DNA of 64,000 nt from Candidatus Latescibacterota bacterium (GTDB lineage: Bacteria; Latescibacterota; UBA2968; UBA8231): contig CBDCDC010000002.1 of assembly GCA_965215195.1 (NCBI GenBank), forward strand, positions 1,888,001-1,952,000, given 5' to 3'. Shown piece by piece: positions 24,236 through 35,542 of this stretch (positions are counted from its first letter, which is position 1; every line of letters begins with the position of its first letter). The notes beneath the pieces were generated by a model that worked only from the letters and a program-made list of their open reading frames with translations, searched no databases and had not been told where the DNA came from. The position numbers and the translations under genes are program-made.

Positions 24236-24264
24236 ATGATGTCGATAATGATACTACATGTCAA
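24236..24264 (-). promoter_or_regulatory. Putative sigma70 promoter of hicAB
   Basis: TTGACA-17 nt-CATCAT on the minus strand, ending 6 nt before the hicA ATG. The spacer contains an imperfect palindrome that could be an operator. Confidence 0.55.
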
Positions 24265-24392
24265 GCAAAAGCGGCTCCTCCGTCGAGTTGTTATCACGGT
24301 CAACAGGCACGCCGCCGCCCGCGCTTGAACCCCCTCCGTCGATACTCTATCTTGACAGCCGCTCCTCCCATTCCACAGACAAAGCAAATCCC

Positions 24393-27300
24393 ATGTCCAA
24401 ACTACTCAATGTGTCCTTTTTGCTGTTCGCCGCTGCCATGATTGCGGTCGTCGGTTTTGGCGATCCGGGCGCAATCAATCAAGCGGTAAACGATTTCTTC
24501 GGCTGGGCACCCAATCCGCCCGTAGAGACGCGGCTGGTGGATCCCGCGCAAGCCGCCCAGCTACGCGCTCTAGTCGCCGATATTGACGAGGCCGACATTG
24601 CCGCTGCGATCGCACGCTTTGCGGCCTTTGGCTCGCGGGTGCCGGGCTACGACGGAGAGCGCCAGGCCCGCGACTACGTGCGCCAGCGGTTTGAGGCGCT
24701 GGGGCTGGAGAACGTGCAGAGCGAGGCGTTTACTGTGGCCGTGCCCATCGATCGCGGCGGCGAGCTAGTGGTGCAAGGCGAGCGCAAACGCCTGTACAGC
24801 TTGTGGCCCAATGGCGTACGCACGCCCTCGCTGGGGCCGGATGGGGTGCGCGGCCCCCTAATCTACGGGGGGGAACTAACCGCGCTCGATGGCCAGCAGG
24901 TGGAAGGCAGCGTCGTGCTCATGGACTTTGGCTGTGGCCAGCAGTACCTCCACGCCGCATCGCTGGGGGCCAAGGCCATCGTCTTTTTCGACAACGGCGG
25001 CGTCAACCGCGAGCAGGCCGCGGACAAGTTCCTCAAGGTGCCGGTTGACATCCCGCGATTTTGGCTCGAGCGGCGAGACGCGCTCGCGCTGTTGGCGCGC
25101 CTGCAAGACGGGCCGGTCGCCGTCCACTTAAATGCGCGGATGGATTGGCAAGGCGTGGAAGCGCACAACGTGTATGGCTACCTGCCCGGGTCGCCACAGA
25201 TGCTGCCGGCCAAGAGCCGAGAAAAGCCGCAGGCGTGGCAGGAGCAAACCATCGTCATCCAAGCCTATTACGACGCCATCTCGGTCGTGCCGGCCCTCGC
25301 CCCGGGGGCGGAAAACGCGGCCGGGATCGTCGCCCTGCTCCAGCTAGTGGAGCTGCTCAAAGCGCATCGCCCGCACTACTCGGTGCTCTTTTTGGCAACC
25401 TCCGGGCACTTTCAGGGCCTGTCCGGGATCAACGATTTCCTCTACCGGCACAGCCGCCGCAGCGACTATTTCCGCGAGCGCATGAGCGCGGCCGAGCGCA
25501 TTGACTTCGACCTGATGCTATCGCTGGATCTGTCGAGCCACGCCGACCGCACGGCCAGCTTTGGCATGGGCACCTTCTACAATCCCAAGTGGCGCACCGA
25601 CAACTACGTCAAATACATGTTGACGCCCTATTCCAAGCGGTTGAGCCTCGCGGTTGAAGAGACCTTTGGCGACACCACGCGTCACTACGAGGGCATTGCC
25701 CCGCCCAAGCGCACGTGGAAAAACTTCATGCCCATCCCGCTCGCCTTTGCCAGCGAGGCCGCGGCCTTCGTCGGCTATAAGGCCCTCGCCCTCGCTACGG
25801 CCAACGACGCACGCGAGCACATCGACACGCCGCTCGACCTGCCGGAGGCCGTAGATGTGCACAATCTCACTCGGCAGATACGGACGCTCGCGGCCATGTT
25901 GGCGTGGGCCGGCCGCGACGCCGAGCTGCTCAAGCCGACCAAGTTGGAACTCGAAGACTACGGCCACAGCTTGGCGGGCGCGATCTATTGGTTCGACCGG
26001 GACGTCAACTTTGCCGTCCCCAAGAAGCCAGTGCCGCAGGCGCTGGTGACCTATCAGCAGCTCGGAACGAACTCGGTCGGCGGAGTTCGCACCTTGATCG
26101 CGCAAGAGGCCGACGATGCGGGCCGCTTCCACTTTGACATCATGCGCAACAAGCTAGACAACGCCATCCGCGCGTACGAACTCGATCCCTACGGCGCGAT
26201 TATCTCGGCACCGGACATGGGCCAAGAGGGCGACGAAACGTACCCGACCATGCATCCGTGGGGCTGGTGGGAAAACGAGATGCTGCAAGTGCTCTTCAAA
26301 TGCCGAGCGCTGAGCTTGTTCGAGACCGTTGACTCGCGCTACCTGTCGGTCTTGGACCACGTGACCGTACTCGACGAGCGCGATGGCGTGCCCCAGTCGT
26401 GGGGGGCCGATTTCGTCGAAAAGCAGAGCAATGAGGAGGGCAAAGTAACCCTCGCTGCGGTGGTGTACGCCCAACCCGGCACCCGGGTCAAAGTCCTGAT
26501 GAGCACGAGCCTGTTCGGGGTGCGCTACCTGCTGAGCGGCGCACCCGCCGAATGGGTGGCCGAGCCGGTGCGCCCGGCCGACGTGGATGAGCCCATGATA
26601 GAGCAGGCCCTCGGGCGCGGCTATCCCGTGGATCGAGGCGTGGTGCTCCGCCCGGGGTACGCGGCCGCGCGCGACATGTGGGTCCTCGACGACGTGCGGA
26701 TCAAGCAGCTCGCACGCTACGGGGTGCGCAACGACAAGTTCATGCGCCTGCACGAAGAGGCGCGCTTGGCCCTGTTGGAGGCCGAAGAGCACTTGCAGGC
26801 GCAGCGGTACAGCGAGTTCAAGCGGGCCACGCGCAAGGCGTGGGGTCTCGAAGGGCGGGGCTACCCAGACATCAAATCGACCGCGGACGACACAGTCTAT
26901 GGGGTGATCTTCTACTTCGCGCTGCTGCTGCCGTTTTCGTTTTGCTGCGAGCGGCTGTTCTTCGGCTTTGCCGACATCCGCCGCCAAGTGGCGGGCGCGG
27001 CGTTTTTCTTCTTGGCGATCTTCCTCGTCATGCGCTTTATCCACCCGGCCTTCAAGCTGAGCTCATCGCCGTACATCATCTTTTTGGCCTTCGTCATTTT
27101 CGCCATCGGCGGCACGGCCCTGCTGATGATCTTGGGCCGCTTTACCCGCGCCGTAGGCCAGCGCAAGCGGGCCGCGGCCGGCGTCCACGAAGCGGACATC
27201 GGTCGCCTCAGCGCCACGGCCGCGGCCGCGTCGCTGGGGATTTCCAACCTGCGCAAGCGCAAGTTGCGCACCGCCCTGACGGTTGTCACCCTGACGCTTT

Positions 27301-29006
27301 TGACCTTTACGGCCCAGGCCTTCACCTCGGTGCAGAGCTATCTCAAGTTCTATCAGATCCCCCGCCCGAATGCGCCCAGCTACGAAGGGGCCCTGCTGCG
27401 CGACCGCGGCTGGAAGGGCTTGCAGCTATCGGTGCTCGACTATGCAGAGAGCGCGTTTGGCGACCGAGCGCAGGTGCTGCCGAGGTCGTGGGTGACCTCC
27501 AAGGTCATTGGCGAGCGGGCCTATATCGACATTGAACACAAGCTGGCGCAGAAGAAGAGCTTTGCCTCGGCCCTCCTCGGGGTGACCCCGGGCGAGGGCG
27601 CGGTGATGGGGTTGGAGGGGCTGTTGGTGGGGCCGGCGAGCCGCTGGTTTGCGGCCGGCGAGCGCGATGTGTGCATCCTGCCGGTGGCTATGGCCGCGAT
27701 CTTGGGCATTGGCCCGGACAAGGTGGGCACGGCCCACATTGGGCTGATGGGGCGGTCCTATCGGGTCATTGGCTTAATCGACGGCGAGGCCATTGACCGG
27801 CTGCGCGACTTGGACAACGAGAGCCTGATGCCCGTGGACACGGTCGCCGAGGCCAAGAAGATGGAGGAAATGGCCGGCTTGGACCCGCGCCTGATGGACA
27901 CGGCCGCGATTGAGACCTTTACCCATCTGCTGGCCAACAACGTGGCGTTCTTGCCCTACCAGCAGGTCGTCGATTTGGGCGGTACGCTGCGCTCCATTGC
28001 CATTGCCGGCTTTGCCGATCGGGAGACCTTGCTCGCCGAGGTTGAGGAATTCGTGTCGCGGGTGGCCGTGCCGCTCTTTGTCGGGGCTGGCGACCGCGTG
28101 CGGGTGTACACGTCCATGGGATCGGCGTCTTTGGCCGGGATTGGCAACCTCTTCGTGCCCTTGTTGATCGCCTCGCTGATCGTGCTCAACACCATGCTCG
28201 GGGCCGTGTACGAGCGCTCCGGCGAGATCGGGGTGTATTCGTCGGTGGGGCTGGCGCCGAGCCACATTGCCGCGCTCTTCATGGCCGAGGCCCTCGTGTT
28301 TGCCATTGTCGGCGCGGTGCTGGGCTATTTGGTCGGGCAGACCACGACCCTGCTGCTGGCGCACTACGCGCTCTTGAGCGGAATGTTTCTCAACTACTCG
28401 TCGCTGTCGGCGATCTTCTCGACCTTGATCGTAATGGTGGTGGTGGTGCTCTCGACCCTGTATCCGGCGCGCAAGGCCGCGGCCATGGCCGTGCCCGACG
28501 TGACGCGGCGCTGGGAGTTTCCCCCGCCCGATGGCGACGACTGGCGCTTTGACTTCCCCTTTACGCTGGGCAAGGGCGATGCCTTGGGCTCGTGCGCGTA
28601 CTTGCACCGGGTCTTTTCGTCCTATGGCGAGGGATCGGTGGGCGACTTTATGACCGAGGGCGTGGATTTCCACTTGGAGCAGGGCGGCGCACAGCCGGTC
28701 TATTTGCTGGAGCTGATGGTGTGGCTCGCGCCCTACGACTTGGGGGTGAGCCAGCGGGTGTTCCTACGCACCTTGCCGACCGACGACATTCCGGGCATTT
28801 ACCGCATTGAGATGCACTTACAGCGCATAAGCGGCGATGTGGTGAGCTGGCAGCGGCTCAACACCAGCTTCCTCAATGTGCTGCGCAAGCGCTTCTTGGT
28901 CTGGCGGACGATTGCGCCCGAAGTGCGAGAGGAATACTTGATTGAGGGCGAGAAGTTGGCGCAGGGGACGGGGGTGGCGCAACCACAAGTTCTAGATATT
29001 AGCTGA
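24393..29006 (+). CDS. M28-peptidase-like/PA domain fused to a MacB/FtsX-like permease
   Basis: FGSRVPGY, NVYGYLPG, IVIQAYYD...PGAENAAG M28-like motifs; SNLRKRKLRTALT and AVYERSGEIGVYSSVG...FMAEA FtsX motifs. Probable start MSKLL at 24393. Confidence 0.8.
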   Translation: MSKLLNVSFLLFAAAMIAVVGFGDPGAINQAVNDFFGWAPNPPVETRLVDPAQAAQLRALVADIDEADIAAAIARFAAFGSRVPGYDGERQARDYVRQRFEALGLENVQSEAFTVAVPIDRGGELVVQGERKRLYSLWPNGVRTPSLGPDGVRGPLIYGGELTALDGQQVEGSVVLMDFGCGQQYLHAASLGAKAIVFFDNGGVNREQAADKFLKVPVDIPRFWLERRDALALLARLQDGPVAVHLNARMDWQGVEAHNVYGYLPGSPQMLPAKSREKPQAWQEQTIVIQAYYDAISVVPALAPGAENAAGIVALLQLVELLKAHRPHYSVLFLATSGHFQGLSGINDFLYRHSRRSDYFRERMSAAERIDFDLMLSLDLSSHADRTASFGMGTFYNPKWRTDNYVKYMLTPYSKRLSLAVEETFGDTTRHYEGIAPPKRTWKNFMPIPLAFASEAAAFVGYKALALATANDAREHIDTPLDLPEAVDVHNLTRQIRTLAAMLAWAGRDAELLKPTKLELEDYGHSLAGAIYWFDRDVNFAVPKKPVPQALVTYQQLGTNSVGGVRTLIAQEADDAGRFHFDIMRNKLDNAIRAYELDPYGAIISAPDMGQEGDETYPTMHPWGWWENEMLQVLFKCRALSLFETVDSRYLSVLDHVTVLDERDGVPQSWGADFVEKQSNEEGKVTLAAVVYAQPGTRVKVLMSTSLFGVRYLLSGAPAEWVAEPVRPADVDEPMIEQALGRGYPVDRGVVLRPGYAAARDMWVLDDVRIKQLARYGVRNDKFMRLHEEARLALLEAEEHLQAQRYSEFKRATRKAWGLEGRGYPDIKSTADDTVYGVIFYFALLLPFSFCCERLFFGFADIRRQVAGAAFFFLAIFLVMRFIHPAFKLSSSPYIIFLAFVIFAIGGTALLMILGRFTRAVGQRKRAAAGVHEADIGRLSATAAAASLGISNLRKRKLRTALTVVTLTLLTFTAQAFTSVQSYLKFYQIPRPNAPSYEGALLRDRGWKGLQLSVLDYAESAFGDRAQVLPRSWVTSKVIGERAYIDIEHKLAQKKSFASALLGVTPGEGAVMGLEGLLVGPASRWFAAGERDVCILPVAMAAILGIGPDKVGTAHIGLMGRSYRVIGLIDGEAIDRLRDLDNESLMPVDTVAEAKKMEEMAGLDPRLMDTAAIETFTHLLANNVAFLPYQQVVDLGGTLRSIAIAGFADRETLLAEVEEFVSRVAVPLFVGAGDRVRVYTSMGSASLAGIGNLFVPLLIASLIVLNTMLGAVYERSGEIGVYSSVGLAPSHIAALFMAEALVFAIVGAVLGYLVGQTTTLLLAHYALLSGMFLNYSSLSAIFSTLIVMVVVVLSTLYPARKAAAMAVPDVTRRWEFPPPDGDDWRFDFPFTLGKGDALGSCAYLHRVFSSYGEGSVGDFMTEGVDFHLEQGGAQPVYLLELMVWLAPYDLGVSQRVFLRTLPTDDIPGIYRIEMHLQRISGDVVSWQRLNTSFLNVLRKRFLVWRTIAPEVREEYLIEGEKLAQGTGVAQPQVLDIS

Positions 29007-29037
29007 CTGAGAAAGACGCCTTAGCACTGTTCGGAGA

Positions 29038-29472
29038 TTATTCCTCTTTTACGGCACCCAACTGCATCGCCGGGTTCTCGATTTTTTCTTTGGAGGCGGC
29101 GGTAGCGAGTTTTTGATCGAAGGTCGCCAGCTTGGCCTTGCGGCGGATGGCTGTTGCCAAATAGCTGGCATCGTATACAGTCAGGTCGTGGCGTTGTGCG
29201 AGGTCCAGAACCGTGGCTTCGTCGCGTGCGGTGTCCTCGCATAATGAAAGCTCGTCCGCGAGCTGAATCAGGCAGGTATCAAAATGCCGTTGGTCTATGC
29301 GCTTACGACGTTTCGCCCTGAGCAAAACGTTGCGAATCTCATACCAAAAAATGATCGGCGCGATGCGCTTTTCGGTATCCAATTGTTCCAGCAAAGCGCG
29401 GGCAAAGTCACTATGCTCTTCGTCGGGCAGTAGCTGGGCCGCTATCACCGAAGCGTCGATTACCGTAGCCAT
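29038..29472 (-). CDS. vapC: VapC/PIN-domain toxin
   Basis: VIDASV, YEIRN, LTVYDASYL and LATFDQKL retain all four PIN acidic residues. The ATG overlaps the Res stop codon (TGATG). Confidence 0.9.
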   Translation of the reverse strand: MATVIDASVIAAQLLPDEEHSDFARALLEQLDTEKRIAPIIFWYEIRNVLLRAKRRKRIDQRHFDTCLIQLADELSLCEDTARDEATVLDLAQRHDLTVYDASYLATAIRRKAKLATFDQKLATAASKEKIENPAMQLGAVKEE

Positions 29473-32312
29473 CAACGCCGGCCCTCTTCTTTCCAGTGGC
29501 GAATTTCCTGCTGCGTCACCGGCCGCATCTGCCGCTGGCGTTCACTCGATGTTTTAAGTGCTCTTCTCCAGATGAACGCGCCCAATGTCGGGTACTCGGT
29601 GGTAAACTCGTCTTGGTTGATGCGCGTGTACTTCCAAGATTTGCCGGTGATTTTGCTTACGCGCTTGCACCAGTCCCGCGCTGCGGCGTCCTTTTCGGCA
29701 GTGCCTTCCCAGACTCGGCCTTTGGTTTCGATGATCCAGTTCACTTCGCTGCCTTGGGTCTCTTGGACCACTACCCAGTCGGGATAGTAGAAGCCGATGG
29801 CACCGCTAGGCTTTAGATAGTCGATGCGGAACACGGTTCCGGAATTGCCCTGTTCCGTCGTCCCAAGTGCTGCGAAGCGCACGACATCTCCGGAGCGGTC
29901 CAAGAACGCTGCGAAGCTACGCTCAAAGCCGTTGTAGGTGGCGACGAAATTGAAAATAGTTTTCTTCGCCTCCAACGGCGGCAAGTTTCTTCTCCAGCTA
30001 AAGGGTTTCGTCAGGGATAGACGATAATCCTCTTTCTCGAACTCGACTGTACGCCGCTCGATGGTGAGCGCAGCGATCTCGCGGGCCATGTATCTGGCAA
30101 TACCCTCCTGCAACTCTAGCCGTGCCAGATGCGAGCGGATAGTTCCATCGGCCAGTTCGATTTTTCGCCCAAAACAACGGTTCACCACATAGTCCTGCAC
30201 AAGCGGATACATCTCCGCGAAGCAGTTGGTTAGCTTGGCATAATCAGCGGTCTTGTTGGCAATGCTCGCTAGAAGCTCTTGGGCGGGCCGTGGCTCCATA
30301 GCAATGTCGGCTTGATGTACCTCAGTCGCCGTGGTTGTGAATTGCATCTTCAGGCTGACCTGAAACGGTTCGGCTAGTTCTTCTTGGTCGAAAATCGCTT
30401 CAAGCGAATACACATCCAAGGTGGACAGCTTGCGGAAATTATGCGTTAGGCTTGGCTTGGTGACTGGAATAGCGATGTCGTACTTCAGCCGCTCTTGCAC
30501 AGGCCCGATGATGACCGGCAGCGGCGGATTGGTGTCAGTACTGGCTATACCGACTCCCTCGGCTTCCAGTTGATCTCGTAGGACTTTGAGCAAGTTTCGC
30601 GTGCCAAGCACCTCTAGGGTCTGCGTTTGGTCGGGGCTTACCTGTGTCATCAGGCGCAGTCCGCGACCAATCACCTGTTCCGGGAGTATCTCGGCTTGTG
30701 CAGTGAAAGGCCGCAATCCCAGTACCACTGTCACGTTGCGTACGTCCCACCCTTCGCGCAGCATCATCACGCTGACAATAGCTTTAATTTTACTCTCGGC
30801 CTTGTCGATGTCTCGCGCTGCTTGCCGCGCCTTGTCAATGTCTCCTTTTCGAACTTCTCCCGTATTGTTCGTGTGGATGATAAGCACCTCGGATTCCTTG
30901 AAGCCGAATTCCTTGGTCTTCCACAGGCACTTCCCCAAGGCGTCTGCATAGAGATTCTTCTCAGCCATGACAAAAAGTACCGGCCTAGTGTTGAGCTTGT
31001 TGTAGGTTTGCCAGTGTTCCTTCCAGCGCTGCACAGCGGCCTGTAGCCAGTAGCCGTACTTCTCCGCCACGTTTTCCTTGGTAACCCCGTCGGGGTCTTC
31101 GGTTGGCTGATTCGGATCATTCTCTTTGGTGACGATGAGCGGTGCCTTGACGATTTTGTCCTCCACGGCTTGTGCCAACGGGTAGTCCACAACCGTCCAA
31201 GGGAAGTACATGCCATTTTGGTCTTTCGGCGTGGCCGAAAAGTCGAGCCAAGCGTAGAGGCCCTGTGGCAGAGAGTTGTGAATGGCGAGCAGCGATTGAC
31301 TCCAAGCCAAGTCCTCGTCGTGGACGTGATGTGCTTCGTCATTTAGCACGACGAGGTCCTTTAGCGATTTCACGCGCTCCAGCGTGGAGTGCTGACCGGA
31401 TGACGCGAGGTCCTGTGCGGGCTTCTTGCCCAAGAGGGCTTCAACGGCATTTTCCGGTGTCCACTCCTCGTCGCAAGATTCGTAGAGTTGGTGAATGTTG
31501 GTGAGGAATAGATTCCCGGACGGGTCTGGCTCGGCGGCCTCGCCGCGCAGAATCACCTTTTGCGCGAAGCTGCCTTTCCACTCTGGTGGGATCAAGGGCA
31601 ATTCATGGAATATCCGGTTGTCGGCAAAATCCTTTTCTAATCGCTGATAGACGATCACATTGGGGGCGACGATGAGGAAGTTCGTGGAGAGATCCGAGCC
31701 GGGTACGCGCTGCTTGTGGAAGCGCGACCAGACGACCGCCATGGCCATCACCCAGGTTTTGCCCGAACCAGTGGCCATCTTGAAGGCGAAACGGCGCAGG
31801 TCTTCGGGCGGTAAGTCTTGGACGCCGTCTCGGTCCAGTTCCGGCACGTAGCGACGAAGCTGTCGCTGGCCGTTCATTGTGGTCTGAAATTCGATATTAT
31901 TCGAGAATAAGTCTTTCTGAGTAATTTTTCCGTACGTCTCAATGAGTGCCTTGGCATCTCGCTGCCCGGCGATCTCTACTAGCCACACCAGCGTCTCGAT
32001 CGCTTCGCGTTGGCAGAAGTAGTATCGGAAAGGCGCATCAAATCCGTTTACCGTATGATCCTCCTCAAACCAATACTCAAACAAGCGTCGAGCGACTCCC
32101 GATGCCCCCTCGTAACCACTGTCGCGCCAAGCATCTACGGCCTTGCGGATTTTCGGCACTAGCAGGAGTTGGCTCGGGCGGCGGCCGGATTCCTCGCGCC
32201 AGCCGGTCGGCGCGTCGTCGTCCTTGACCAAGTAGGAAGCGGGCCTTTCCCACGGGCGGCGACCCTGAATTTCCGGTAGGTCCTTGTCGTAATTGATGAC
32301 AGCTTTTGCCAT
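29472..32312 (-). CDS. Type III restriction endonuclease Res subunit (SF2 helicase + PD-(D/E)XK nuclease) with a C-terminal extension
   Basis: YFCQREAIET, MATGSGKT, NDEAHH, FSATP, LREGWDV, EQVIGRGLR and YPDWVV...IIETKG motifs. Confidence 0.9.
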   Translation of the reverse strand: MAKAVINYDKDLPEIQGRRPWERPASYLVKDDDAPTGWREESGRRPSQLLLVPKIRKAVDAWRDSGYEGASGVARRLFEYWFEEDHTVNGFDAPFRYYFCQREAIETLVWLVEIAGQRDAKALIETYGKITQKDLFSNNIEFQTTMNGQRQLRRYVPELDRDGVQDLPPEDLRRFAFKMATGSGKTWVMAMAVVWSRFHKQRVPGSDLSTNFLIVAPNVIVYQRLEKDFADNRIFHELPLIPPEWKGSFAQKVILRGEAAEPDPSGNLFLTNIHQLYESCDEEWTPENAVEALLGKKPAQDLASSGQHSTLERVKSLKDLVVLNDEAHHVHDEDLAWSQSLLAIHNSLPQGLYAWLDFSATPKDQNGMYFPWTVVDYPLAQAVEDKIVKAPLIVTKENDPNQPTEDPDGVTKENVAEKYGYWLQAAVQRWKEHWQTYNKLNTRPVLFVMAEKNLYADALGKCLWKTKEFGFKESEVLIIHTNNTGEVRKGDIDKARQAARDIDKAESKIKAIVSVMMLREGWDVRNVTVVLGLRPFTAQAEILPEQVIGRGLRLMTQVSPDQTQTLEVLGTRNLLKVLRDQLEAEGVGIASTDTNPPLPVIIGPVQERLKYDIAIPVTKPSLTHNFRKLSTLDVYSLEAIFDQEELAEPFQVSLKMQFTTTATEVHQADIAMEPRPAQELLASIANKTADYAKLTNCFAEMYPLVQDYVVNRCFGRKIELADGTIRSHLARLELQEGIARYMAREIAALTIERRTVEFEKEDYRLSLTKPFSWRRNLPPLEAKKTIFNFVATYNGFERSFAAFLDRSGDVVRFAALGTTEQGNSGTVFRIDYLKPSGAIGFYYPDWVVVQETQGSEVNWIIETKGRVWEGTAEKDAAARDWCKRVSKITGKSWKYTRINQDEFTTEYPTLGAFIWRRALKTSSERQRQMRPVTQQEIRHWKEEGRR

Positions 32313-32314
32313 GG

Positions 32315-32508
32315 CTATTTCACCTCAACATCAAGAGCTTGCGAGGTATCGTTGCCAAAGATGTCGATTACTTTGACCAGCACTCGGTATTTGCCGGACT
32401 TCTCGTAAGTGTGGGAGTCGGAAATGAGTGGGAGCCTTCGATCTTTACGCGTGCGGTAGGCGACCCATCCCTGCATGATTCGGTCTTCGTGATGTCGATC
32501 TTCGCCAT
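32315..32508 (-). pseudogene. Type III Mod methyltransferase remnant with a large internal deletion
   Basis: ATG-MAKIDITKTE is joined out of frame to WVAYRTRKDRRLPL...GKYRVLVKVIDIFGNDT, which resembles a Mod C-terminus. No DPPY or FxGxG motif remains. It sits 2 nt upstream of res. Confidence 0.75.
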
Positions 32509-32578
32509 TATTCCGCTCCTTGGATTTGCTCAAATACTCACGATCTTAGATGAGGATGTCAAAGTCAGCAGGCATCAT
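32498..32578 (-). pseudogene. Collapsed second copy of the AlbA-ATPase gene (ends only)
   Basis: Reads MMPADFDILI*DREYLSKSKERNNGED, matching the start (MTPADLDILI) and end (RDYLHKFKGRDNGED) of 33421..34887. Confidence 0.75.
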
Positions 32579-32759
32579 GCGCTCCCTCCGTCCATCCAAT
32601 AACGCCTTCCGCACGGCGCATCAACCGCAGATCGCATTCTTGGCAAATTTTCGCCTCGGTCTGAATTCGGTTGAACGGGCTGTCGAGATGGCCAATAACC
32701 TCGCGCTGACTGCCGCTGAGTTCCGGGTAGTGCTTTAGGATGGCGAGCGCGATGCTCAC
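32565..32759 (-). pseudogene. UvrD-like helicase/nuclease remnant (ends only)
   Basis: ELSGSQREVIGHLDSP (UvrD Q-motif region, cut just before Walker A) is fused to KICQECDLR (Cys tail typical of PD-(D/E)XK/AddB-like ends). Confidence 0.55.
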
Positions 32760-33376
32760 AACAGCCCCGCCTTCCTAAAGCTGAAGGTCTCCGACGCCGA
32801 CACGATTAGATGCTCGACAACCCGAAGGCTAATGGTTTCGGCGGCCAGTACGATGGCCCGCGTGACTACCTTGTCTTGTGCGCTCGGCTCGACATTGCCA
32901 TTCGGATGGTTGTGCGCGAGTACGAGTGCCGCTGCTTGGCGCTTGAGCGCGGACTCCACGACGCGGCGCGGATACACCGCTGCTCGATCAATTGTGCCTT
33001 CCTGAAGCGTTTCGACGCCGTCGCGGAGTAGCCGATGTGCGGAGTCGAGGTATGCCACGGCGAACACCTCGTGCTTGAGGTGACCGATCCGCATGCGCCA
33101 GAAGTCGCCGAGCCGCTCTGGGTCGCGCAGCACTTCCGCTTCCCCTGATGCTTCCTGCAAGTAGAGCGTCGCCGATTCGCGGATGACTTTCAGGGAGATC
33201 GCGGCGACCTCGCCGATGCCCGGCACTGACCGCAACTCGGTTAGCGGCGCGTCCAAAACACCTCGCAGGCTGCCGAAGCGCTTGAGCAGTGCCTTGGCTT
33301 GTTGCTTCACGTCCGAGCGGGGGATGGCCAAGGTCAACAGCAACTCAATGACCTCGTGTTCGGCGAATCCCGCCAA
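32756..33376 (-). CDS. radC: RadC/JAB domain protein, 5' end apparently frameshifted
   Basis: ELLLTLAIPR, LLKRFGSL, VPGIG, GTIDRAAVYPR and AHNHPNG..EPS..D motifs. The natural ATG (MAKTEAH*) at about 33434 is out of frame with RLCQRFLKSG. Confidence 0.85.
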   Translation of the reverse strand: MAGFAEHEVIELLLTLAIPRSDVKQQAKALLKRFGSLRGVLDAPLTELRSVPGIGEVAAISLKVIRESATLYLQEASGEAEVLRDPERLGDFWRMRIGHLKHEVFAVAYLDSAHRLLRDGVETLQEGTIDRAAVYPRRVVESALKRQAAALVLAHNHPNGNVEPSAQDKVVTRAIVLAAETISLRVVEHLIVSASETFSFRKAGLL

Positions 33377-33420: not shown

Positions 33421-34887
33421 TCAGTCTTCGCCATTATCCCGCCCTTTGAATTTGTGCAAATAGTCGCGTCCCGCCGGCGTCAGGCGATAGCACTGCTTTT
33501 TGCTGCGCGGCTTGTCGGGGATGGTCATTTCGATCAAGCCGGCTTGCAGGGCGGGCAATAGGTAGGTTTTGCGGACGTGTTTGGTATTCTTCAGGCCCAA
33601 GGCTTCTTGGATCTGCCTTCTGTTCATCTCGCCCGATATTACCCCTAAAAGACGCACTGCCCCGGTATCTTGGGGGGTAACTTCCCCGGTATCTTGGGGG
33701 GTATCTTGAGGGGTAACTTGGGGGGTAACTTCCCGGGTAACTTGATCTTCTAGTGCCCGCACCTCGGGGTCCGGCCGGAAAACAACGACAAAAAAGGCAC
33801 CCCGAATCTTAAATTCCGGTTCCGGGCAGCCCTGCTCCCGCGCCTCGTCCCGAATACGGCGAATACCAGTGCCCGCTTTCTCGATAAACTCAATGCGGTG
33901 GAGCAGATCGGCGATAAGTGGATTGCGACGGATGCTCTCGCGGCCGAGTTCGGCCAACTTCAGGCCCGTTGGCAGGCCGCCGGGACTTATCACCTCAATG
34001 CGATTGGCGTAGATCTCGACGAAGACGTTGGCACCCTCGAAAAACCAATCGCGGTGCATGACCGCGTTGGTGATGGCCTCGCGCAGCGCCTTCATCGGGT
34101 ATTCCGGGACGTTTTCGCGGCGCAGGCTTTCAATGCGATAGGCCGTGCGGGTATTGCGCTCAATGAAACCCAAGGCGTCCTCAATGTCGGCCACGATGCC
34201 GCCGTCAAAATCGCGGCGGTCGAGGATACGCACTTTGTCCGCGCCTTTGCCGAGCAGGCAGGTGATGTAGGCTTCGGAGAAGAAGTGCCGCACGTTCTTG
34301 GCGAAGAAGAGCACCCCCGCGTTGCGGAAGAGTAGCTTATCGCCCGCCCGCTCGGCCGCCTCGATGTTGACCAGCACGTCTTCAAGCGGCGGTTGTCCAC
34401 TGATGCCGGACAGCTTGAGCCAAGCGTCGTACTTCTCGCGGTCGAAGTCCTCCGGGTAGCGGAAACGAGGACAGGGCGAGAGATCAAACCGGATCACGCC
34501 CTCGCTGCGGAAGAAATCGCGGATTTCGTCGCGGCTGAGCTTTTGGGTCACCGCGCCCTGACGCCAGAAGAAGCCTTCGCTGCATTGCACCGGCTTGGCG
34601 TCGCTTTCCCGGACATGCACTGCGAATACGTCATCCACCGGCTCCACCAGTACCTTCACCGGGGGGTCGCAATTGCGGGCGATGTCCTGAATGCGGGCGC
34701 GCAGGGCATTGGAGTCCTTGACGCCGGTCACAGTGCCGTCATCGCGCACCCCGAGCAGGAGCTTGCCCCCAACTGTGTTGGCCATGGCCACCAGTTCTCG
34801 TGAGAACGACGACGAGAGGCCCTCTTTGAACTCAAGCGTGGTCCCTTCGCCTTGCTGAATGAGAATATCGAGGTCCGCAGGTGTCAT
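33421..34887 (-). CDS. AlbA_2 (Schlafen-like) + HATPase_c_4 + wHTH protein (RecG-C-like ATP-binding regulator)
   Basis: GEGTTLEFKE, AMANTVGG.LLLGV.DDG, ALREAITNAVMHRD, ISPGGL, RNPLIA, IEKAGTGI and IPDKPRSKKQCYRLT motifs. Confidence 0.88.
   Translation of the reverse strand: MTPADLDILIQQGEGTTLEFKEGLSSSFSRELVAMANTVGGKLLLGVRDDGTVTGVKDSNALRARIQDIARNCDPPVKVLVEPVDDVFAVHVRESDAKPVQCSEGFFWRQGAVTQKLSRDEIRDFFRSEGVIRFDLSPCPRFRYPEDFDREKYDAWLKLSGISGQPPLEDVLVNIEAAERAGDKLLFRNAGVLFFAKNVRHFFSEAYITCLLGKGADKVRILDRRDFDGGIVADIEDALGFIERNTRTAYRIESLRRENVPEYPMKALREAITNAVMHRDWFFEGANVFVEIYANRIEVISPGGLPTGLKLAELGRESIRRNPLIADLLHRIEFIEKAGTGIRRIRDEAREQGCPEPEFKIRGAFFVVVFRPDPEVRALEDQVTREVTPQVTPQDTPQDTGEVTPQDTGAVRLLGVISGEMNRRQIQEALGLKNTKHVRKTYLLPALQAGLIEMTIPDKPRSKKQCYRLTPAGRDYLHKFKGRDNGED
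33661..33744 (-). repeat. In-frame 12-bp tandem repeat, about 7 units
   Basis: Encodes QVTR EVTP QVTP QDTP QDTG EVTP QDTG. Confidence 0.85.
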
Positions 34888-35144: not shown

Positions 35145-35351
35145 ATGAGACAAGCGATTATTTACCGAGGCGAAGATGGCTATTGGGTTGCTGAATGCCC
35201 TAGCTTGCCCGGTTGTATCAGCCAAGGGAAAACAAAGCAAGAAGCCATCGCCAACCTCAGAGAGGCGATTGAAGGGTACATTCTTTCCCTTGAGGAGGAT
35301 GGACTATTGGTTCCTAAAGAACAGTTTGAGGCATTGGTAGTAGCCGTGTGA
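35145..35351 (+). CDS. hicB: Short HicB family antitoxin (no DNA-binding domain)
   Basis: EDGYWVAECPSLPGCISQGKTKQEAIANLREAI; AGGAGG RBS. Confidence 0.9.
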   Translation: MRQAIIYRGEDGYWVAECPSLPGCISQGKTKQEAIANLREAIEGYILSLEEDGLLVPKEQFEALVVAV

Positions 35352-35542
35352 GCCGATTGCCGAGAATTTCAGGGAGAGCCTGCGTCAATGCACTCGGCAA
35401 AGTTGGTTTTTACCATAAACGCCAGCACGGTAGCCATATAATTCTGCGTCGATTCGCTCAAGTCGTCATTCCCGATCACAAAGAACTGGATAGGATCAGA
35501 CAAGCTGACCTTGGTGTAGAAGAGTTTGTACGATTACTGTGA
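35348..35542 (+). CDS. hicA: HicA family toxin, possibly degenerate
   Basis: LPRISG...GFYHKRQHGSHIILRR..VIPDHKELD..IRQA. Shorter than usual and lacks the GTLxxI segment. Confidence 0.75.
   Translation: MSRLPRISGRACVNALGKVGFYHKRQHGSHIILRRFAQVVIPDHKELDRIRQADLGVEEFVRLL

Follow-up and report, generated by a model that had tools for sequence, protein, structure and literature searches.

A type III restriction subunit of Candidatus Latescibacterota that appears to end in an antitoxin C-terminus and probably restrains the adjacent VapC toxin

Here we describe a type III restriction subunit gene (res) and a gene for a VapC toxin, which overlap on the minus strand of a 64,000-nucleotide stretch of a Candidatus Latescibacterota bacterium (GenBank assembly GCA_965215195.1, contig CBDCDC010000002.1, positions 1,888,001 to 1,952,000). 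This whole stretch is called the window below, and the genome holding the res–vapC locus is designated G000. Res is prolonged past its nuclease domain by a tail, and in sequence comparison approximately its last 30 residues share homology with the C-terminal end of free Phd/YefM antitoxins. The tail and vapC are inherited and lost as a pair, and other Res homologs end in other antitoxin-like peptides beside their own toxin genes. We consider it likely that Res itself serves as antitoxin to VapC in a type II toxin-antitoxin pair, and the defence enzyme thus probably keeps a suicide RNase in check.

Layout of the res–vapC locus

The features on which the analysis depends are the following (aa, amino acids; ORF, open reading frame):

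29472..32312, minus strand: res, type III restriction subunit of 946 aa, a single ORF
29038..29472, minus strand: vapC, PIN-domain toxin of 144 aa (PF01850, E 4.7e-15)
29470..29474, minus strand: TGATG, made of the res stop TGA (29472-29474) and the vapC ATG (29470-29472), pointing to translational coupling
29475..29603, minus strand: C-terminal extension of Res past the nuclease domain, 43 residues (aa 904-946), TTEYPTLGAFIWRRALKTSSERQRQMRPVTQQEIRHWKEEGRR
29475..29564, minus strand: antitoxin-derived segment of Res (aa 917-946), ..ALKTSSERQRQMRPVTQQEIRHWKEEGRR, homologous to the toxin-binding C-terminal part of Phd/YefM-type VapB
29482..29489, minus strand: Shine-Dalgarno-like sequence of vapC, GAAGAGGG, within the Res codons K-E-E-G
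29213..29653, minus strand: recombination block of the Res tail and about the first 80 vapC codons, swapped between lineages as a unit, from the nucleotide identity profile
31755-31769, minus strand: Walker A motif GSGKT of Res (aa 182-186)
31329-31340, minus strand: DEAH motif of Res (aa 325-328)
29718-29729, minus strand: E-x-K (aa 862-864) of the Res nuclease motif, whose PD is at aa 844-845

Both the helicase motifs and the PD-(D/E)xK nuclease of type III Res proteins are present. The protein matches Pfam ResIII (2.9e-17) and PADLOC REase_III (2.2e-19), the RE_endonuc match is weak, and the match to the NCBIfam BPTD_3080 family, the named Res family that comes nearest, is partial, at 283 bits well under the 800-bit cutoff. 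Full-length orthologs with 77-86% identity were found in 7 other genomes of the phylum Latescibacterota. Conservation in the nuclease domain extends as far as the element WKYTRINQDEF (aa 893-903). The initial annotation of this DNA, made from the letters alone, had Res continuing past that element at about 29472-29603; the ORF agrees with this and gives 43 residues more. The extension starts with ..PTLGAFI.., like the short natural ends of tail-less homologs, which terminate 10-40 residues past the W-x-Y..NQ..F element.

The four catalytic acidic residues ascribed to VapC in the same annotation were located as D6, E45, D101 and D119. In an alignment of 56 VapC homologs the first three are invariant and D119 is found in at least 90%. 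Inspection of the ORFs likewise confirmed that vapC starts within the res stop, as TGATG, and has no antitoxin gene of its own: no other minus-strand ORF of at least 20 aa reaches it. An overlap of this type occurs in 10/10 of the orthologs listed. The ribosome-binding site of vapC is strong and sits inside the final Res codons, the Shine-Dalgarno sequences of the orthologs at this site being GAGGAGGG or GACGAGGGG. A scan of positions 28700-33000 for promoters and terminators gave counts at the level of shuffled sequence and nothing between res and vapC, and a search of the own genome with VapC as a query found no paralogs.

Similarity of the Res tail to antitoxin C-termini

A profile built from 13 orthologous Res tails was searched against proteins of 30-98 aa at E<=10. 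Of the 37 matches obtained, 34 carry PF02604 (Phd/YefM) and one more is Phd/YefM by name, so that the antitoxin origin of the tail supposed in the initial annotation is borne out by 35/37 proteins. The remaining two are a Res fragment and an unannotated protein with the same ending. The profile aligns with the free antitoxins at their C-terminal ends; its E-values are marginal against 5.8 billion sequences (best 1.7e-3) because the match is short. Single sequences gave clearer values: the G000 tail shares 17/30 residues with an Agrobacterium plasmid antitoxin (BLASTP, E 3e-8), and the tail of an ortholog (L007) shares 19/21 with a Mesorhizobium Phd antitoxin (E 8e-13). Among 12 orthologs the tail is 50-90% identical over 40 residues. 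In the free antitoxin, the Pfam Phd domain occupies residues 4-41 of 80 and the part matching the tail lies after it, and Res, unlike its free antitoxin relatives, has no match to PF02604, the Phd/YefM DNA-binding fold. Antitoxins are described as modular, with a C-terminal part that binds the toxin, and the VapBC-5 crystal contains VapC5 with only residues 53-86 of VapB5, so a short C-terminal piece can suffice (passages in PMC4803016).

The free relatives of the tail are themselves partners of VapC. The tail-matching antitoxins on rhizobial plasmids, Agrobacterium fabrum pAt12D13b and Sinorhizobium chiapasense pSchITTGS70b (loci L040 and L041), sit directly 5' of VapC proteins 41% and 35% identical to those of the res loci, and for the VapC of the res locus the identity to the plasmid VapC with a Phd antitoxin is 41% (E 2e-29). 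Six more Latescibacterota genomes hold VapC homologs of 31-38% identity with free upstream antitoxins, which end in a motif of the I-R/K-E/K-x-x-x-E-G-R kind. The ending ..I.....EGRR, which the initial annotation had given from recall, is thus real and occurs on free antitoxins 5' of VapC homologs, on rhizobial plasmids as well as within the same phylum. The N-termini of the antitoxins in those six genomes are Phd-like (3), RHH-like (1) or unclassified. Since the same ending stands on different antitoxin N-termini, the toxin-binding module is portable and Res is another of its carriers.

When a 40-column tail profile was run with HMMER against 1.84 billion representatives at E<=0.001, no further large carriers of the G000-type tail appeared. 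The five matches were two Res sequences (one of 947 aa and a fragment of 167 aa), one Phd antitoxin and a pair of proteins of 476 and 289 aa, to which the profile aligned in four short segments each. A sequence search of the PDB found no solved complex with the tail motif; the free antitoxin matches there by its N-terminal Phd domain only, and the VapC profile matches just two Pyrobaculum PIN proteins (PAE0151 and PAE2754), which are not listed as complexes.

Distribution of the tail and of vapC

Res relatives were present in 23 of 168 Latescibacterota genomes searched (G000 included). The tail was found in 13 of them, and in 13/13 vapC or a recognisable remnant of it, starting MATV.. or MLTV.., comes after the res stop. 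Six loci of the phylum whose Res C-terminal domain is 22-66% identical (L021, L023, L024, L031, L033 and L036) have neither tail nor vapC. The metagenome scan covered the best 80 of 578 Res relatives, with a readable C-terminus in 78. The G000-type tail occurs in a single one of these (L044), which is also alone in having a VapC homolog (43% identity) that overlaps the stop; the other 77 have neither, six of them with less than 400 nucleotides of downstream sequence. Neither was found in 16 Res relatives from viral contigs.

Over 114 loci, tail and vapC (or its remnant) therefore occur together in 15 (the 13 phylum genomes, L044 and the short contig L008), both are absent from 99 (6 phylum, 77 metagenomic and 16 viral-contig loci), and mixed cases number 0. 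The initial annotation had asked whether the tail goes with vapC, and a tail on Res homologs lacking vapC would have spoken against its reading. No such case appeared: the tail is absent from Res homologs without vapC, and every tail that lacks an intact vapC adjoins a vapC remnant. Because the loci are related, p-values would be inflated, and we take the bare count as the result. All VapC homologs of the phylum with at least 61% identity lie at res loci.

Two occurrences carry labels of other phyla. The L008 contig (2.6 kb, from a genome collection, labelled Chloroflexota) carries the res-tail-vapC module, and the protein P0015 (labelled Gemmatimonadota) is a VapC of 78% identity. These labels could reflect horizontal spread or mis-binning of short contigs.

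Recombination, selection and decay

The res gene of G000 is mostly 80-97% identical in nucleotides to those of three related loci (L006, L007 and L014). From about res codon 890-900 to about vapC codon 80 the identity falls to 40-71%, after which it returns to 77-97%; the breakpoints of this block lie at about 29613-29653 (5') and 29213-29237 (3'). The tail was thus exchanged jointly with the N-terminal portion of the toxin, as a matched pair, while the rest of res stayed conserved. Both partners are under purifying selection, with a median ratio of non-synonymous to synonymous differences (pN/pS) of 0.37 over 66 pairs for the tail and values of 0.14-0.47 for VapC.

A full-length Res with tail is encoded in 8 genomes, in 5 of which VapC is intact (G000, G126, G138, G048 and G050). 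In the other three it is broken, by a frameshift in G102, by a deletion past six codons in G145 and by an insertion of foreign DNA past approximately codon 42 in G059. The res gene is broken in 8 further genomes (G130, G053, G054, G046, G052, G136, G131 and G071) and none of them has an intact VapC (0/8); in G136 and G131 single deletions took the tail and the vapC start together. This asymmetry of decay (Fisher p = 0.026, without correction for relatedness) is as expected if Res protects against VapC.

The DNA interrupting vapC in G059 (L018:4344-5841) encodes a long ORF and is possibly an insertion sequence.

Res homologs with other toxin-linked tails

Four further Res homologs among the 78 metagenomic C-termini (L043, L077, L090 and L089) have a long tail with a toxin gene immediately 3'. 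The C-terminal half of a VapB forms the end of the L043 Res, which matches positions 33-65 of 65 of NCBIfam TA_VapB (E 9e-13) and positions 32-64 of 64 of Pfam DUF2281 at 29.8 bits, over the 26.5-bit cutoff. Its plasmid matches are, among those listed (12 of 21), DUF2281 and Phd antitoxins only. The stop of this res overlaps a PIN gene, which is broken.

The Res proteins of L077 and L090 end in another peptide, which matches free proteins of 61-87 aa (E 5e-11 to 4e-10). The peptide also shares 15/41 residues (E 5e-7) with the C-terminus of a 102-aa protein from a Stanieria plasmid. The Stanieria protein and its Microcystis counterpart, whose ending is similar by eye, are encoded on cyanobacterial plasmids in overlap with PIN homologs, and the res genes of L077 and L090 both overlap such a PIN gene. 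A search of viral contigs for free proteins related to the L077 tail gave two weak partial matches.

In L089 a complete Doc toxin (L089:2080-2649, Fic/DOC 7e-19) starts one codon past a Res tail of about 35 aa. The L077 and L089 tails gave no match to plasmids with tblastn.

Tails of the G000, L043, L077/L090 and L089 types have no similarity to one another. In a quick tree the fused Res proteins are spread among homologs that have no tail: the clade of Latescibacterota has a Shimodaira-Hasegawa-like approximate likelihood ratio (SH-aLRT) support of 96, L077 and L090 group together with 82, and L043 lies beside a tail-less sequence. The dissimilar tails and scattered positions in the tree together argue for at least three independent fusions.

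Some further observations concern the same Res family. The L089 Res is sister to the PIN-bearing L077/L090 Res in the quick tree, which suggests replacement of one toxin cassette by another at the same site. On a metagenome contig (L121:736-1269), a Res homolog with a 57% identical C-terminal domain ends in a LexA-like Peptidase_S24 domain (Pfam, 5.3e-12), another sensor-like appendage. A third homolog (L109:2116-2778) has a C-terminal extension of about 220 aa without a clear family, and a GmrSD_N type IV restriction gene lies 3' of it (L109:2795-3613).

Loss of mod and support from other assemblies

Upstream of res only a remnant of the methyltransferase gene is left:

32315..32508, minus strand: mod remnant, comprising a ribosome-binding site, the 10 first codons (32479-32508) and the 58 last codons with the stop (32315-32491)

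The junction between the surviving parts is out of frame and about 1.65 kb is deleted. The orthologous loci have an intact 616-aa type III methyltransferase gene, one base upstream of res; that of L006 matches PADLOC MTase_III at 8.4e-126. A functional Mod encoded together with Res is thus present in relatives such as L006 and absent from the window. A type III Res without Mod does not restrict. With mod deleted, res and vapC would now work as an addiction pair, and this would preserve res. The retention of an intact res beside a destroyed mod, which the initial annotation had sought to explain in this way, is true of G000 and fits retention by addiction, as a single case in one genome.

A contig from an independent study (X5, record 12) covers the junction of tail and vapC with 0 differences over 29252-30323. 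The junction left by the loss of mod is spanned by contigs from two runs of one study only, possibly that of the source sample.

Two genomes of the same genus, G136 (L009 = L025) and G131 (L010 = L032/L038), have mod intact and single deletions that leave res joined either to the middle of vapC or to its end, an outcome opposite to that of G000, where mod is gone and res-vapC is retained. The join in G136 is in frame and gives a res::vapC chimera.

Neighbouring genes

Downstream of vapC there is just the convergent end of a gene for a 1582-aa protein (24258-29006, plus strand), 31 nucleotides apart, with PA and M28 peptidase domains and a C-terminal FtsX-like permease. On the other side, about 3 kb from res, lies a hicB-hicA pair (35145-35542, plus strand; UPF0150/HicB-like 2.6e-09, HicA_toxin 1.1e-08). 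Between it and res are a RadC-like JAB gene (32756-33376) and a gene with Schlafen AlbA_2, HATPase_c_4 and Fic-like_C domains (33421-34887). The neighbourhood of res, together with hicB-hicA, looks like a small defence or mobile island.

Discussion

The Res protein of this locus is best read as a type III restriction subunit naturally fused to the C-terminal peptide by which VapB antitoxins of the Phd/YefM type neutralise their toxins; the N-terminal DNA-binding and dimerisation domain of the antitoxin has been replaced by a 900-aa enzyme. With that domain replaced, the pair should not autoregulate and would use the mod-res promoter instead. Translation of vapC is coupled to the end of res, so that newly made VapC could be bound and silenced by the Res tail, which presumably blocks the active site as the free antitoxins of that family do. 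The activity of VapC would then depend on how much Res is present and on whether it is intact, and the RNase would be freed if Res were removed or degraded or its supply stopped. The fusion, its homology to antitoxins, its inheritance with vapC and its recurrence beside other toxins are seen in the sequences, from which we infer the binding and neutralisation, the toxicity of VapC and the trigger. The arrangement may serve addiction to the locus, a back-up when phages disable restriction, as in PrrC-EcoprrI, or both.

Several points weigh against such a function of Res. Canonical antitoxins are small, dimeric and protease-labile, and a carrier of 946 aa does not obviously fit their logic of stoichiometry and turnover. 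Clear homology to antitoxins spans just 21-30 residues, which may be too few to silence this VapC, and the G000 tail by itself has no Pfam or NCBIfam match. The best-conserved residues of the tail (K/R-E/D-E-G) overlap the vapC Shine-Dalgarno sequence, so some of this conservation could concern the nucleotides, and a tail pN/pS of about 0.37 indicates moderate constraint only. VapC is lost in 3/8 of the genomes that keep Res, which makes the res–vapC pairing dispensable. Truncated res ORFs (172-280 aa) keep the tail, and the decay pattern therefore does not separate a need for full Res from a need for the tail. The L089 tail gave no alignment with a Methylocella Doc antitoxin, so that the argument for a Doc pair is one of position.

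Beyond the single locus, type III Res proteins may have repeatedly captured toxin-binding peptides, of the Phd-type EGRR, VapB/DUF2281 and cyanobacterial kinds and possibly of a Doc kind, with the toxin as a sentinel that is freed when a phage degrades Res, inhibits it or stops its supply, leading to abortive infection. We offer this as a tentative proposal with a real chance of being correct. If it holds, the arrangement would amount to a guard wired covalently to a defence enzyme, and the design, an antitoxin tail on any defence protein followed by an orphan toxin, would be general and searchable.

It is also conceivable, if on the unlikely side, that the toxin is a selfish hitch-hiker: a vapBC cassette inserted 3' of res, and through a deletion the 3' end of vapB became joined to res, after which the tail neutralises VapC and only stabilises the locus by post-segregational killing, with no phage sensing. 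The molecular mechanism would be the same as that proposed above and the purpose alone would differ. The frequent decay of both res and vapC across the phylum, the persistence of the two genes in G000 without mod and the recombination of the tail and vapC block in the manner of a mobile cassette are all in its favour. Accident alone, however, hardly accounts for at least three unrelated antitoxin C-termini on one Res family, each with its own toxin, and the fusions stand apart from each other among tail-less homologs in the quick tree.

We regard it as very improbable that the tail is a functionless relic beside a VapC that is inactive, unexpressed, or silenced by RNA or by an unlinked antitoxin. 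The failure of the G000 tail to match a curated family would agree with such decay; the purifying selection on tail and VapC, the retention of the four catalytic acids, the conservation of the tail among the 12 orthologs and the absence of a VapC paralog from the search of the genome speak against it.

Similarly improbable is a start inside res at an invariant methionine (aa 929, ..QRQ-M-RPVTQ..), which would yield a free mini-antitoxin of 18 residues and leave Res as a bearer of the reading frame. Met929 is indeed present in 13/13 tails, at a position where free Phd antitoxins mostly have Ala or Arg. Its ATG, however, is preceded by no consistent Shine-Dalgarno sequence in 10/10 orthologs, in which that of vapC is strong; the analogous tail of L077 is without any Met, and 18 residues fall short of the 21-30 over which the alignments to antitoxins extend. 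That a sequencing or assembly frameshift masks a normal small vapB between res and vapC is hardly credible, as the same unbroken frame is found in 13 genomes, the L008 contig and the L044 metagenome contig, the independent-study contig crosses the junction without a difference, and no frame of the region encodes a Phd-like N-terminal domain.

With Res as the probable antitoxin, a link between toxin and immunity would be written in the sequence itself, as an antitoxin peptide inside a restriction subunit, arisen at least three times with different toxin families. It would account for some of the 'orphan' toxins beside defence genes, and it gives a rule for searching, namely to look for antitoxin C-termini on the ends of large defence proteins.

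Comparison with known systems

The closest known relatives are the Phd/YefM-VapC modules of pAt12D13b and pSchITTGS70b, which share with the res locus the PIN toxin (35-41% identical), the C-terminal motif of the antitoxin (up to 19/21) and a stop of the upstream gene that overlaps or abuts the toxin start. They differ from it in having a small upstream antitoxin gene and an N-terminal Phd/YefM domain; here the peptide is the end of a 946-aa Res, no autoregulation by the antitoxin is expected and expression would follow the mod-res operon. The enzyme itself agrees with type III restriction-modification systems in its superfamily 2 (SF2) helicase motifs and C-terminal PD-ExK nuclease, and the loci of its relatives have the upstream N6/N4 methyltransferase, of the PADLOC type III class, in a tight operon. 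The 43-aa C-terminal extension, the coupled toxin gene and the deleted mod set the present locus apart.

CapRel is a single-chain (fused) toxin-antitoxin protein. In the single-chain EzeT (passages in PMC4803016) the antitoxin element likewise lies within a larger polypeptide, as it would in Res. In both of these toxin and antitoxin make up one chain, whereas here the antitoxin element is placed on a third-party defence enzyme and the toxin is separate and translationally coupled.

In function the nearest parallel is PrrC-EcoprrI, where an RNase toxin is encoded in a restriction-modification locus without a free antitoxin and the restriction protein is the proposed inhibitor (passages in PMC3506569 and PMC12707154). 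PrrC is an ABC-ATPase/HEPN anticodon nuclease whose latency is maintained by a type Ic enzyme, and the present pair is of a PIN toxin with a type III Res, which makes the likeness an analogy and not membership. No antitoxin-derived motif is known for PrrC, whereas the Res chain itself includes a peptide that can be recognised as an antitoxin's. Activation of PrrC by a phage anti-restriction factor has been shown; for VapC a release of the toxin is proposed by analogy.

Immunity proteins that restrain adjacent toxins were proposed by Makarova et al. in 2012 (passages in PMC3506569), and PrrC-EcoprrI is still the one well-studied case, the sole entry under 'Sensing REase inhibition' among the passages listed from a 2025 review (PMC12707154). 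A full-text search, with subscription-only papers and supplements outside its scope, found no description of a restriction subunit that carries an antitoxin peptide; such a fusion is mentioned neither in the four passages with 'restriction' of a 2009 toxin-antitoxin survey (PMC2701414) nor, among the matches listed (12 of 37), in the 2025 restriction-modification review (PMC12707154). Type III Res, VapC, the Phd-type C-terminus and the 2012 idea of restraint are thus all known, and what is new here is their covalent and recurrent form.

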